NCBI GenBank assembly: GCA_041746975.1
Contig: JBGTGB010000058.1
Coordinates: 3,855 to 67,854 of the forward strand
Reading direction: 5' to 3'
DNA: 64,000 nt
Source of the DNA: Haliea sp.
GTDB lineage: Bacteria; Pseudomonadota; Gammaproteobacteria; Pseudomonadales; Halieaceae
The notes below the pieces were generated by a model that ran no database searches, had not been told where the DNA came from, and saw only the letters and a list, made by a program, of their open reading frames with translations. The stretch's first letter is position 1, and the number at the start of each line of letters is the position of its first letter. Shown here one piece after another: positions 14,935 to 27,987 of this stretch. Made by a program: the position numbers and the translations under genes.

Positions 14935-14948
14935 AATGTACGTACATT
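14935..14948. promoter_or_regulatory. Operator palindrome AATGTACGTACATT (putative GntR/HutC-family site)
   Basis: Perfect 14-bp palindrome directly after a TTGACG -35-like hexamer (14929-14934), upstream of the TonB receptor. Confidence 0.75.
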
Positions 14949-15025
14949 GTGCTTGATTTTATAAAATATTGTGAGCATAGTCAGGGTGGGATTTGAAGTA
15001 TTGTCAAGTTATTTAGGGGATTACG

Positions 15026-17614
15026 ATGATCAAAAGCCAGCTAAAACCTATGTACCTGTCCGTGTTAGTGGCCTTACCAGCGGTTGGATCGCTCACGGTT
15101 GCAAACAATGCTCATGCGCAGTTGGAAGAGATCGTGGTGACGGCACGTGCGCGTGCCGAATCACTGCAGGATGTGCCTTCGACAATTACCGCGTTTTCGG
15201 AAGGCCAGATCGAAAATATGGGTGTGCAGCGCGCCGAGGACTTTGTCTACATGACCCCGGGCGTAACTTTGGTCAACACTGTGGAGGTGGGCGATTCCTC
15301 GCTGAGTATTCGCGGCATTTCCGGCGCGCGTGACGGCGAGACCAACTTCGCATTCATTGTCGATGGCATTCTCTACACGAACCCTTCCGCCTTCAACCGT
15401 GAATATCCTGATCTGACGCAAATCGAGGTGCTCAAGGGCCCTCAGGGCGCGCTCTACGGTCGCTCCGCCGCCGGTGGCGCGGTGATCATGTCGACCAGCA
15501 GGCCCACAGATGAAGTTGAAGGAGAGGTAAAACTTTCTGTCGCTGAACATGGTACCTATACCGCAATGGGCACCATCGCTGGCCCGCTGGGTGAGAATGT
15601 GGCTGGTCGCCTGACCGTGGACCATCGTTCGACTGACGGCTTTTCGGAAAACGTGTTTTTCAATGATAATGTAGTGAACAATTTCGAAGAGACCGGGATT
15701 GCCGGTCGACTGGTGTTCGATCCCAGCGATACCCTCAGCATCGACACCAAGTTGCGGTACTCGGAGGTAGAGGCTGGTGCTATCGCCTTCAACGCAGCTT
15801 TCCAATTACCGTTTTTTGTCGGCGCACTGGACGGCTTGCAGGCATTCGGGGTGGACCCGGCAGCCGCGTCCATCGATGTGAACGACTTTGAGTGGGTGTA
15901 CTCACCCAATGTCGATCCTGAAAACAAGCAGGAGACCGTGGAGTTTTCAATAAAGGTGGACAAGGAACTGGGAATCGGCACCCTGACCGCCTGGGCACTT
16001 TACTCTGACCAGGAGCAAAGTTTCATCGCCGATGGTACCTCCGGCGCTTTTGGATTCTACAACGGCAAGGCACATTGCCAGGAGTCCGCAGCGGCACGGT
16101 CTCTTCTGCTTGGAGACGCGACCCCCATGCAACAGCCGACTTTCAATATTGCCGGGTTTACCCCGGCTGGTGATCCCTTCTTCCCTCCTTACAGCCCGAC
16201 AACCTGTGATGGTTATCAGTGGCAGGAGCGCAACCAGGAGGATTTCAGCGCGCAGGTACAGCTGACGTCATCGGGGGACGGTGCCCTGCGTTGGCAGGTG
16301 GGAGCTTATTACCTGAATATCGAACGGACGGTAGGGGTTGCGCAACTTGAGGACGACGGACGCCCGAACCTGCCCGAGAGTTTCGTCAACGAGTTGACTG
16401 ATGCCCTGGTGCTGGATGACTTCACCACTGACGTTTATGCGGTATTTGGTTCAGTAAACTACGACATCAGTGATCGTATGGAACTGTCGATTGCCGCTCG
16501 CTATGACCGTGAGGAACGTGAGGTCAAAAACCAGGTGCCAAGCCCCTTGGACGGGAATCTTTCTACCAATATTGACTATTGCGGGACGTTCTTTGAGGGT
16601 GGCTGCACGTTCAACGGTGAGCCTCTCAATGGTACTCCCTGGAACCCCGCCTTTATCGACCTGAATACAGGCGAGGTAAGCGCCTCGGTTGCCGATCGTA
16701 AGGCGACCTTTGATGCCGTGCAGCCCAAGATCAGCCTCACCTACGATGTTAGCGATAACACCACAGTGTTCGGTAGCTGGGGTGTCGGGTTCAAGACGGG
16801 AGGATTCAACAACCTGGGTGGCACCGAAATTATTGAGCTGTTCCTGGTGAACCCAGACGGCTTGCCCATTGCGCCACCTGAAATTTACGAGGAGGAAACG
16901 TCAAGTGCGTTTGAGCTTGGTTTCAGCTCGACTGTTCTCGATGGCGCTCTGCAGCTGAACGGCGCCGTGTTCCACACCGAAGTCGACGACATGCAGTTCT
17001 TCGAATTTTATGTCGGACCCTTTGGTTTGCTGCGTGTGGTTTCGGCGATTGACGAGGTCACCATTCAGGGATTTGAGCTGGGCGCTTCTTGGCAGATGAG
17101 CGACTCATTGCGCCTTGACGCAGGCTACAGCAACATTGATGGCGAAATTGATAAAATGAGTGTTCGCCCTTACGTAGCCGGCAATGAAGTCCCCAACCTC
17201 GCTGAATTCACTGCAAATCTGGCGCTCACATGGAACCGAAAAGTAGCTGGAAACCTCGATCTTCTGGCGAGACTGGAGTACGCCTACCAGGGCGATATCT
17301 TCTATCATGTCGTGCAGGGTAGTGATCTCGATCAGCCCCGGGCAGGAGATTTCGAGGGGCTGCCGCTTGAAGTCCCGGCCGTGCTGTTCGGTGGTCTGGG
17401 AACGAGCTTCGCCAACACCAAGGTTGATGGCTATGGAATCACTAATCTTCGCCTCGGCATTGGCAGCGACAACTGGCGGGTGACTGCTTTCGCCCGCAAC
17501 CTGTTTGACGAAGAGTACGTAGGCGAGGTAATTCTGGCTCCCGAGTTTGGTGGCGGTTTTGTGACGCCCGGTAACGCGCGCACTGCCGGGGTCGAAATTC
17601 AATTCATGTTCTAG
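15026..17614 (+). CDS. TonB-dependent receptor
   Basis: Signal peptide, TonB box LEEIVVTARAR, plug IEVLKGPQGALYGRSAAGGA, C-terminal GVEIQFMF. Confidence 0.95.
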   Translation: MIKSQLKPMYLSVLVALPAVGSLTVANNAHAQLEEIVVTARARAESLQDVPSTITAFSEGQIENMGVQRAEDFVYMTPGVTLVNTVEVGDSSLSIRGISGARDGETNFAFIVDGILYTNPSAFNREYPDLTQIEVLKGPQGALYGRSAAGGAVIMSTSRPTDEVEGEVKLSVAEHGTYTAMGTIAGPLGENVAGRLTVDHRSTDGFSENVFFNDNVVNNFEETGIAGRLVFDPSDTLSIDTKLRYSEVEAGAIAFNAAFQLPFFVGALDGLQAFGVDPAAASIDVNDFEWVYSPNVDPENKQETVEFSIKVDKELGIGTLTAWALYSDQEQSFIADGTSGAFGFYNGKAHCQESAAARSLLLGDATPMQQPTFNIAGFTPAGDPFFPPYSPTTCDGYQWQERNQEDFSAQVQLTSSGDGALRWQVGAYYLNIERTVGVAQLEDDGRPNLPESFVNELTDALVLDDFTTDVYAVFGSVNYDISDRMELSIAARYDREEREVKNQVPSPLDGNLSTNIDYCGTFFEGGCTFNGEPLNGTPWNPAFIDLNTGEVSASVADRKATFDAVQPKISLTYDVSDNTTVFGSWGVGFKTGGFNNLGGTEIIELFLVNPDGLPIAPPEIYEEETSSAFELGFSSTVLDGALQLNGAVFHTEVDDMQFFEFYVGPFGLLRVVSAIDEVTIQGFELGASWQMSDSLRLDAGYSNIDGEIDKMSVRPYVAGNEVPNLAEFTANLALTWNRKVAGNLDLLARLEYAYQGDIFYHVVQGSDLDQPRAGDFEGLPLEVPAVLFGGLGTSFANTKVDGYGITNLRLGIGSDNWRVTAFARNLFDEEYVGEVILAPEFGGGFVTPGNARTAGVEIQFMF

Positions 17615-17623
17615 TTGTCAGAG

Positions 17624-27160: not shown

Positions 27161-27162
27161 GC

Positions 27163-27942
27163 TCAACCCCACGTCCAGCCATCAGCGGACTGCCAGCCGC
27201 GAGTGAATTCGAAGGAGTAATTGAAATTGGCCGCAGCATGTTCTGACAAAGAGGCTTCGAATATTCGGCCATTCTTGCCGAAATATCGACGGCACACTTT
27301 CAGGGACGCGGAACCTGGTTCAACATTCAGAAATCCGGCGACTCGCTCACTCAGAATGCTTGCATATATTTCGACTTGTATCTTTTGCACCTCTTCACCG
27401 TAGGAATCGGCGATAAGCCGATAAACGGGGGTAGACGTTGCGCCGATTTTGTCAATAACGCCGGCATACTCAGGCAGAATGTAGACATTCACCCAACAAA
27501 TGGGTAGCGCCGTCTCTACGAATGTTCGAAGACCTGAGACGCAGCTCCAGTGACTGCTGGTAGGACACTTGAGCTCGCGGGCCAGTGCCCTGTTCAGTTT
27601 GACGTCTTCGAATCGGTCGATGACGCGTAGCCGGCTGTCCTCGGGGTAGCTGAAAAGTTCGGAGGGCTCCTTCACCAACTGGGCGTAAGACGCCTGAGTT
27701 TCGCTGGCCACAATGATTGTGCCTATTCCCTGGCGGCGCTCGATCAGTCGCACTTCTTCAAGTACCCGAAGCGCGCCGCGAATAGTGTGGCGGCTGACGC
27801 GGTAGGTCTTCATCAGATCGAGTTCGCCCGGCATGCGCGTCCCAACGGCGAATTTTCCGCTGCGGATCGCGCCTAGAAGTTCTTCGGCGATGACTTTGTA
27901 ACGGGGACTTTTCCCGACATCGCTACCGGCAACGTTCAACAT
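27163..27942 (-). CDS. GntR family regulator, HutC/UTRA subfamily
   Basis: wHTH GTRMPGELDLMKTYRVSRHTIRGAL...RRQGIGT; C-terminal UTRA-like domain. Confidence 0.9.
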   Translation of the reverse strand: MLNVAGSDVGKSPRYKVIAEELLGAIRSGKFAVGTRMPGELDLMKTYRVSRHTIRGALRVLEEVRLIERRQGIGTIIVASETQASYAQLVKEPSELFSYPEDSRLRVIDRFEDVKLNRALARELKCPTSSHWSCVSGLRTFVETALPICWVNVYILPEYAGVIDKIGATSTPVYRLIADSYGEEVQKIQVEIYASILSERVAGFLNVEPGSASLKVCRRYFGKNGRIFEASLSEHAAANFNYSFEFTRGWQSADGWTWG

Positions 27943-27973
27943 GCTTGCATCCCAACCAACTTAATTGGATACT

Positions 27974-27987
27974 ATTGTCCGTACATT
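27974..27987. promoter_or_regulatory. Operator palindrome ATTGTCCGTACATT
   Basis: 12/14 identical to the 14935 site; between the divergent gntR and maoC starts. Confidence 0.7.

Follow-up and report, generated by a model that had tools for sequence, protein, structure and literature searches.

GntR-family regulators recognize palindromic operators with the signature (N)y-GT-(N)x-AC-(N)y (PMC3592433). The repressor AraR of Bacillus subtilis, for which structures are deposited (PDB 4egy, 4egz and 4h0e), has as its consensus operator a 16-bp palindrome, ATTTGTACGTACAAAT; residue R41 contacts G5 in bidentate fashion, a water-mediated contact lets H42 read the central G8'/G9, the wing residues Q61 and G62 lie in the minor groove, and K4, Y5, T43 and E30 complete the interface (PMC3592433). 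AraR acts through several operators in several promoters, including its own. A second group of described relatives, the HutC-subfamily repressors (HutC, NagR/YvoA, DasR, TreR and PhnF), combines a GntR winged helix-turn-helix (wHTH) domain with a UTRA effector domain, and its members are local, usually autoregulated regulators of catabolic clusters. Here we analyze a 64-kb stretch of Haliea sp. DNA (contig JBGTGB010000058.1; hereafter the window), in which four palindromes are probably the operators of a HutC-subfamily GntR protein (gene at 27163-27942) that would repress seven transcription units, one of them containing its own gene.

In comparison to AraR, the proposed system likewise uses a 16-bp palindrome at several promoters, and the central 10 bp are identical (ATTTGTACGTACAAAT versus AATGTACGTACATT), whereas the outer three bases of the half-site are ATT in AraR and AAW here. 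The similarity is confined to the ~66-residue DNA-binding domain: AraR carries an arabinose-binding effector domain of the LacI/GalR type and comes from a Firmicute, whereas the protein described here has a UTRA domain and belongs to a marine gammaproteobacterial lineage. In comparison to the HutC-subfamily repressors, the domain layout and the local, presumably autoregulatory arrangement are the same, but the dyad centre here is CG. The HutC-subfamily consensus has TA at the dyad centre, and NagR has Met at the position corresponding to His52 of the regulator.

The enzymes encoded in the cluster invite a further comparison. Its CoA module is built from the enzyme families of the itaconate clusters (Ict/Ich/Ccl; RipABC of Yersinia; PA0878-PA0883 of P. 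aeruginosa), namely a family III CoA-transferase, a MaoC-type hydratase, a CitE-like lyase and an acyl-CoA dehydrogenase, with an MmgE/PrpD protein in addition in relatives. Unlike them, the cluster here also encodes HyuAB, two amidases, a hydrolase and a TonB receptor. The known itaconate degradation clusters are under LysR-type regulators and are not known to be under GntR proteins. A literature search on this cluster, on Halieaceae hydantoinases and on a GntR regulator of itaconyl-CoA hydratase genes found no paper, and a search with the core 10-mers returned AraR papers only.

Four palindromes in the promoter gaps of the cluster

A sequence-only reading of the window had pointed to four 14-mers, each close to AATGTNCGNACATT, in four promoter regions. 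All four were found where it had placed them, and all lie in non-coding gaps, even though a greedy open-reading-frame map covers ~95% of the window. Operator 1 (14935-14948; AATGTACGTACATT) is a perfect palindrome located upstream of the gene for a TonB-dependent receptor (TBDR), 77 nt before its ATG. Operator 2 (19271-19284; AATGTTCGGACATT), which like operator 1 has no mismatch to AATGTNCGNACATT, lies between two divergent operons that include the two isochorismatase-family genes, Iso1-EamA and Iso2-ABhyd. Operator 3 (22132-22145; AATGTCCGGTCAAT, two mismatches) is located between the divergent CoAT3 and hyuAB. Operator 4 (27974-27987; ATTGTCCGTACATT, one mismatch) lies in the 76 nt separating gntR from maoC, whose start was set at the ATG behind GAGGAGG; it is 31 nt from either start codon and is the predicted autoregulatory site of gntR. 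No strand is assigned to any of the four. Together they face seven transcription units comprising 12 genes (TBDR; Iso1-EamA; Iso2-ABhyd; CoAT3; hyuAB; gntR-ccl; maoC-ACAD), and the gene map agrees with the earlier statement that the sites cover the TonB receptor and three divergent promoter pairs, that of gntR among them.

The strongest single fact on site statistics is that two perfect matches to the 12 specified palindromic bases were seen where ~0.004 are expected per 64 kb by our own arithmetic. With up to two mismatches to AATGTNCGNACATT allowed, the window has five matches against 1.62 expected, a count reached in one of 100 shuffles. To score the sites independently of the window, a position weight matrix (PWM) was made from 77 distinct sites of other loci only, with the window sites left out; its consensus is the 16-bp palindrome AAWTGTMCGKACAWTT (dyad AAWTGT-MCGK-ACAWTT). 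When the window was scanned with this matrix, operators 1 to 4 scored 19.3, 26.1, 23.3 and 23.6 bits, respectively, and the next-best match 11.8 bits. On block-shuffled windows the best match had a mean of 11.0 bits and reached 20.5 at most, and the second-best never exceeded 13.8.

Three weaker matches were rejected. The fifth two-mismatch match, at 27260 inside the gntR coding sequence, is taken as chance because it scores low (8.7 bits) and its position is not conserved. Candidate auxiliary sites at 15000-15015 (7.2 bits) and 22083-22098 (6.2 bits) sit within regulated gaps, 65 and 49 bp from the main operators; their scores are inside the shuffled range and they are not claimed.

Conservation of the sites in related loci

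Sequence coverage was 64 kb for this genome and 20-kb pieces for other loci. A genome scan with the regulator gave four loci from metagenome-assembled genomes of Halieaceae/Alteromonadaceae type (72-79% identical), a metagenome scan with Iso2 gave 58 more, nearly all marine, and exact-protein look-ups added one 6.45-Mb genome and two distant lineages, for ~65 loci overall, the majority from marine Halieaceae. In the gntR-maoC gap of the four Halieaceae-type genomes (alignment A1), a 21-nt block, AAATGTACGGACAATAGTATC, is invariant within diverged flanks, and the hyuA-CoAT3 gap of the four Halieaceae-type genomes (alignment A2) likewise has an invariant block, CAATTGACCGGACATTTG, in diverged surroundings. 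The operator 3 14-mer is identical in 27 of 28 orthologous gaps. Between Iso1 and Iso2, an anchored comparison revealed the conserved arrangement cTTGA-operator-ctaagtCATATT. One further locus (L049) keeps the same order of CoAT2, site and TBDR, with a PWM score of 22.1.

Gap occupancy was then counted at a PWM score of at least 12 bits. A site is present in 40 of 44 Iso1-Iso2 gaps, 26 of 27 CoAT3-hyuA gaps and all 14 gntR-maoC gaps, and 325 kb of coding sequence has a single match. Relative to genes annotated by orthology to window proteins, 132 matches fall outside and two inside. The sites persist across genomes of 51% to 68% GC.

The association with gntR extends to distant loci, since a site lies beside gntR in L064-L067 too. 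Where the gntR orthologues are only 41-42% identical, in other gene contexts and at 62-68% GC, TAATGTCCGGACAAWT is kept in the gntR-maoC gap. These loci are without hyuAB and the amidases, and have only maoC-ACAD-CoAT-CoAT plus a lyase or TonB receptor gene. In one of them (L066, with a gntR product 41% identical), TAATGTCCGGACAATT scores 24.1 bits and is the top match in 20.7 kb, and a second site lies 29 nt upstream of the adjacent TBDR gene, whose product is unrelated to the receptor in the window. At 9958-9985 of the same locus, and alike in L067, a second, overlapping TCCGGAC core follows 12 bp past the autoregulatory site (TAATGTCCGGACAATTATCCGGACGG), and this doubled core could be a tandem site.

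Loss of the regulator was seen in a single case. One marine contig (L017) has no gntR between maoC and the lyase gene, and two motif copies are left (4395-4520 and 7020-7050) in which CA replaces the central CG, elsewhere 93% conserved. This is consistent with decay of the sites after regulator loss. In the 6.45-Mb genome (L064; ctg138368_156x_c of ERZ26693861), genes for an insertion-sequence-type transposase and an integrase interrupt the cluster at 3900-20300, and CoAT1, nitroreductase, ACAD and Iso are each called in two pieces, with four operators intact. The split genes stem either from decay of this copy or from frameshift errors in long reads.

The candidate regulator, its predicted DNA code and the likely sign of regulation

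The candidate regulator has 259 residues, with a GntR wHTH domain at residues 15-77 (PF00392, E 9e-15) and a UTRA domain of the chorismate-lyase fold at residues 111-238 (PF07702, E 5e-13). Pfam detected no periplasmic-binding-protein-like (LacI/GalR-type) C-terminal domain. Over its full length, the protein matches NagR/YvoA and DasR best among PDB structures. The operator fits the GntR-family form, with GT-N4-AC at motif positions 5-12, which bears out the sequence-only reading in its description of a HutC/UTRA-type protein on a GT-N4-AC palindrome. The named HutC-subfamily equivalogs of NCBIfam (HutC, TreR, PhnF and PhnR) were all far below threshold, with HutC, the best of them, reaching 78.8 bits where the cut-off is 220. 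By architecture and operator form we assign the protein to the HutC subfamily, outside every named equivalog. Its ~125 homologous clusters, nearly all from marine Halieaceae metagenomes, are annotated no finer than 'GntR family'.

At the level of DNA recognition the closest solved relative is a different one. When the DNA-binding domain (residues 12-77) was compared with PDB structures, the top match was the AraR N-terminal domain from B. subtilis (4egy; E about 3e-7), and the two proteins have an identical recognition helix, VSRHTIR. With an offset of ten, the AraR contact residues K4, Y5, E30, R41, H42, T43, R45, Q61 and G62 correspond to R14, Y15, E40, R51, H52, T53, R55, Q71 and G72; K4/R14 is a conservative change and the remaining residues match. 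Across 28 orthologues (39-100% identity), E40, R51, H52, T53, R55 and G72 are invariant, as are S50, R69 and G74, and Y15 is nearly so; position 14 is R or L, position 71 is Q, R or A, and the helix SRHTIR and the wing RRxGxGT are conserved. The predicted operator and the AraR operator have the same central ten bases, TGTACGTACA, in the same register. Thus, with the same helix and the same operator core, there is already a solved structure of what is in essence this helix bound to this DNA. The regulator is predicted to be AraR-like at the DNA, yet it is not a member of the AraR family. The sharing of one helix and one operator core by a UTRA regulator and the LacI-domain AraR implies that the GntR DNA code may be predictable from few residues, and suggests that a His after the conserved Arg goes with a central CG.

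The sites are present and non-random, they are conserved in position and in sequence, they co-occur with the regulator, and they match its recognition-helix code. That they are functional cis-elements is almost certain from these comparisons. Co-occurrence, the loss case (L017) and the DNA code are three independent pointers to the local regulator, which very likely binds them. The proposal that one local GntR protein controls transport, hydrolase and CoA genes along with itself is supported computationally by the conserved footprints, gap occupancy, co-occurrence and AraR-like contacts.

The sign of regulation was assessed from promoter geometry. At operator 1, TTGACG abuts the left edge and TATAAA/TAAAAT follows 12-14 nt to the right. 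Operator 2 fills the spacer between a conserved -35-like TTGAAA and the -10-like hexamer of the Iso2 promoter, and in many loci is ~25 nt from the Iso1 start codon. On either side of operator 3 stand inverted TTGACG hexamers (CGTCAA...TTGACG), both of them conserved. The best promoter-like match of the region, the predicted CoAT3 promoter TTGACG (22132-22127)-18-TAGAAT (to 22103), has its -35 box abutting operator 3, and alignment A2 shows both of its hexamers, TAGAAT and TTGACG, to be conserved. The site upstream of CoAT1 in relatives touches the ribosome-binding site. As the operators either overlap core promoter elements or lie directly against them, the best interpretation is autoregulated repression, and the local GntR is likely a repressor. 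Consistent with this, the depositions of the solved UTRA-domain relatives NagR/YvoA and DasR name them as repressors.

In the mechanism that we propose, a homodimer would place one wHTH on each half-site of the 16-bp dyad AAWTGT-MCGK-ACAWTT, with Arg51 reading the G of TGT and His52 the central CG, as in AraR. The bound dimer would block RNA polymerase at the promoter elements that it overlaps or abuts in the seven units named above, and a small anionic pathway intermediate on the UTRA domain would free the repressor from DNA. The likeliest effector would be a C5-dicarboxylate of the itaconate/mesaconate/methylsuccinate type or its CoA ester. The regulon would in this way couple uptake and ring or amide hydrolysis of a nitrogen-containing compound, by the caprolactamase-like HyuAB, the two cysteine-hydrolase amidases and the alpha/beta hydrolase, to an itaconate-like CoA module.

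Several points weigh against repression of the cluster by the local GntR. The Iso1-Iso2 site is missing in L048, L050 and L052, where the other sites are kept, and the nitroreductase gene (29735-30451) has no operator in its upstream region in the window. The promoter hexamers are consensus matches only, in a region without an overall excess of such matches. The PWM was seeded from the consensus of the sequence-only reading, so its exact matrix shape is partly circular, a circularity of which the alignments and the positional conservation are free. Three DNA runs, from a hot-spring metagenome, are listed among sequencing runs for the window sequence, two of them holding it, and no RNA runs. 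Finally, the centre of operator 3 is ~42 bp upstream of the predicted CoAT3 start, which is also the position of a class II activator.

The last point bears on an alternative in which the local GntR binds the sites but activates, or is a dual regulator, at some promoters. The candidate would be the CoAT3/hyuA pair, where operator 3 lies between two back-to-back -35 boxes, and a few HutC-family proteins such as DasR are reported to act on targets in both directions. We consider this unlikely, because the location of operator 2 in the -35/-10 spacer, of operator 4 at 31 nt from both starts and of the relatives' CoAT1 site on the ribosome-binding site is incompatible with activation; moreover, AraR, which has the closest characterized DNA-binding domain, is a repressor (PMC3592433), as NagR/YvoA and DasR are deposited to be.

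A very improbable alternative is that the operators are real and are bound by another factor encoded elsewhere, for example a GntR-type protein with the same SRHT helix, the adjacent gntR having some other target. AraR demonstrates that the same DNA code can occur together with an unrelated effector domain, and our view of this genome is 64 kb. Against this stands the site in the gap upstream of gntR in every locus examined, the 41-42% identical orthologues in other contexts included. In addition, no other regulator gene is conserved in the cluster, the contact residues of GntR are invariant, as is the core of the motif, and the sole contig that lacks gntR has degenerate sites.

The idea of chance matches, or of a non-regulatory repeat (of the repetitive extragenic palindromic or miniature inverted-repeat transposable element kind), an RNA hairpin or a terminator, which draws on 14-mers that are short and AT-rich in AT-rich intergenic DNA and on the match at 27260 that is indeed chance, is effectively refuted by the A1 and A2 alignments, by the PWM window scan, in which the independently built matrix separates the four sites from all else, and by gap occupancy, with position and sequence conserved over ~60 loci of 51% to 68% GC, no flanking direct repeats found at the palindromes, no RNA family match in an Rfam search of 11-31 kb, and imperfect dyads conserved without compensatory changes, which in the case of the invariant operator 3 points to a protein site rather than a hairpin.

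Gene content, pathway and candidate effector

The reading in which the local GntR represses from these operators applies to most of the cluster and not to all of it. The sequence-only reading had the protein repress the whole block; this holds up for the seven units with sites, the repression itself being our inference from promoter geometry, and does not extend to the nitroreductase gene or to the CoAT1-HMGL-CoAT2 operon. The latter operon has, instead of a palindrome, a perfect sigma-54-type promoter, TGGCAC-N5-CTGC (TGGCACAACACCTGC, 11478-11492), 47 nt upstream, and adjoining this promoter is a divergent gene for a PrpR-like sigma-54 activator (9356-11296, reverse strand). In the Halieaceae relatives, a GntR-type palindrome precedes the orthologue of CoAT1; in the four genome loci this orthologue (69-71% identical) faces the nitroreductase gene, and AATGACCGGACAAA is invariant in the gap. 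This arrangement is gone in the window. CoAT1 thus appears to have been rewired between two regulators.

The predicted regulon of the relatives extends further, as they have additional genes with sites. In most of them a gene for a TauD-family dioxygenase lies downstream of EamA with its own site, ATTGTACGGACATT, in more than 30 loci, and the TonB receptor in the window stands where relatives have this dioxygenase beside EamA. An operon for an MmgE/PrpD protein and an HpaB-fold protein follows the lyase gene, with the site CATGTCCGGACATT. The MmgE/PrpD protein is nearest to iminodisuccinate (IDS) epimerase and cis-aconitate decarboxylase, and the closest solved relative of the HpaB-fold protein is 4-hydroxybutyryl-CoA dehydratase (AbfD). 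Examples of the three extra genes are found at 4313-8278 of L025, at 11698-14643 of L001 and in about 30 other loci; elsewhere in the 64-kb window there are no TauD, MmgE/PrpD or AbfD-like genes.

Gene functions in the window were assigned from Pfam and NCBIfam families and solved relatives. On the forward strand, the operon of CoAT1, an HMGL-like lyase and CoAT2 (11540-14894) is followed by the TBDR gene (15026-17614), behind which lies a bidirectional terminator-like hairpin (17625-17657). The reverse-strand genes for Iso1, an isochorismatase-family amidase distantly related to biuret hydrolase and RutB (18550-19218), and an EamA-family transporter (17624-18553) form one operon. Divergent from it, on the forward strand, are Iso2, a cysteine-hydrolase/isochorismatase-family amidase (19340-19972), and ABhyd, an alpha/beta-fold hydrolase distantly like PcaD and RutD (19982-20785). 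CoAT3, of CoA-transferase family III (20822-22006, reverse strand), faces hyuA (22192-24249) and hyuB (24269-26233) on the forward strand, which encode the alpha and beta subunits of an ATP-dependent enzyme of the hydantoinase/oxoprolinase/caprolactamase type; a terminator-like hairpin (26251-26270) follows hyuB. The gene for a CitE/Ccl-like acyl-CoA lyase of the HpcH/HpaI family (26276-27172, reverse strand) overlaps the stop of gntR (27163-27942, reverse strand), with which it is probably co-transcribed. To the right of operator 4, the forward-strand operon of maoC, for a MaoC-type (R)-specific enoyl-CoA hydratase like itaconyl/mesaconyl-CoA hydratase (28019-28543), and the acyl-CoA dehydrogenase gene ACAD (28540-29712) precedes the nitroreductase-family gene (reverse strand), which forms the right edge of a low-GC island.

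This island, at 14895-30460, has 54.6% GC against 61-62% on either flank, and its proteins are 72-93% identical to those of Halieaceae loci with 51-57% GC. The block resembles a cassette gained by horizontal transfer with its own operators retained. A search of the window for tRNA genes found none, and no integrase marks the island borders. The window DNA itself comes from a hot-spring metagenome.

None of the cluster's enzymes reached an NCBIfam equivalog cut-off, and so each is described by its nearest family. MaoC is nearest to the itaconyl-CoA hydratase RipB/Ich (RipB_Ich 218.6 bits versus a cut-off of 340) and the lyase to CitE/RipC (RipC_Ccl 162.6 versus 375; citE 215, below cut-off). 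HyuAB has clear Hydantoinase_A and Hydantoinase_B Pfam domains and is nearest to caprolactamase (CapA 539 and CapB 212, versus cut-offs of 1000). Iso1 is nearest to biuret hydrolase/RutB-type cysteine hydrolases; among solved structures, N-carbamoylsarcosine amidase and NicF-like maleamate amidase come closest to Iso2. For CoAT3, the nearest enzymes are succinate-glutarate and succinyl-CoA:mesaconate CoA-transferases. These affinities suggest a pathway in which a nitrogen-containing ring or amide would be hydrolyzed and deamidated to a C5-dicarboxylate, followed by degradation resembling that of itaconate, mesaconate or methylsuccinate.

The sequence-only reading expected that the effector of the GntR protein would reveal the substrate. 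It may not do so, as the CoA module comprises the only genes that always accompany the regulator. Because the distant orthologues regulate the CoA module alone, the effector would probably be a shared intermediate from further down the pathway rather than the entering compound, and a C5-dicarboxylate (the acid activated by the CoA-transferases) or its CoA ester is more likely than the initial substrate. A fuller scenario, which we offer tentatively, is an undescribed route, widespread among marine Halieaceae, in which a nitrogen-containing cyclic amide or imide is taken up by the TonB receptor, opened by the caprolactamase-like ATP-dependent enzyme and deamidated by the two cysteine hydrolases, with the resulting branched C5-dicarboxylate entering the itaconate-like CoA module; a HutC-type sensor with the AraR code would control the route, and the cassette with its operators would have moved horizontally into a higher-GC hot-spring bacterium.

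This is a solid regulon prediction of the ordinary comparative-genomics sort, and it does not overturn current understanding. It provides a testable regulon for an uncharacterized GntR lineage of ~125 protein clusters, and defines which of ~13-20 enzyme and transporter genes belong together, which is the best current handle on the function of a pathway linking lactam/amide hydrolysis to C5-dicarboxylyl-CoA chemistry. Of modest added interest are the occurrence of an AraR-type recognition code in a UTRA-domain protein and the uncharacterized pathway, and once its effector is known the regulator with its 16-bp operator could serve as a biosensor.

Two further features were observed near the operators. 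An exact 11-mer, ATGCTTGCATC (GATGCAAGCAT on the coding strand of CoAT3 and gntR), is common to 22075-22085, in the predicted CoAT3 5' leader, and 27941-27951, in the ribosome-binding region and start codon of gntR; its GCAAG core is kept at both places in the relatives of alignments A1 and A2. A sigma-54 reading of the conserved TGCAAGC/TGGCAG near operator 3 was rejected, as its GG and GC are spaced one base too far apart and L003 and L004 do not keep the GG.

In the left flank of the window (118-9337), there is a second catabolic set without the GntR-type palindrome. Its genes encode a TonB receptor fragment, a sodium:solute symporter, a protein of the arylmalonate-decarboxylase/maleate-isomerase family, an FAD monooxygenase, an aldehyde dehydrogenase and a carbon-nitrogen hydrolase, a combination reminiscent of pyridine or nicotinate-type degradation.

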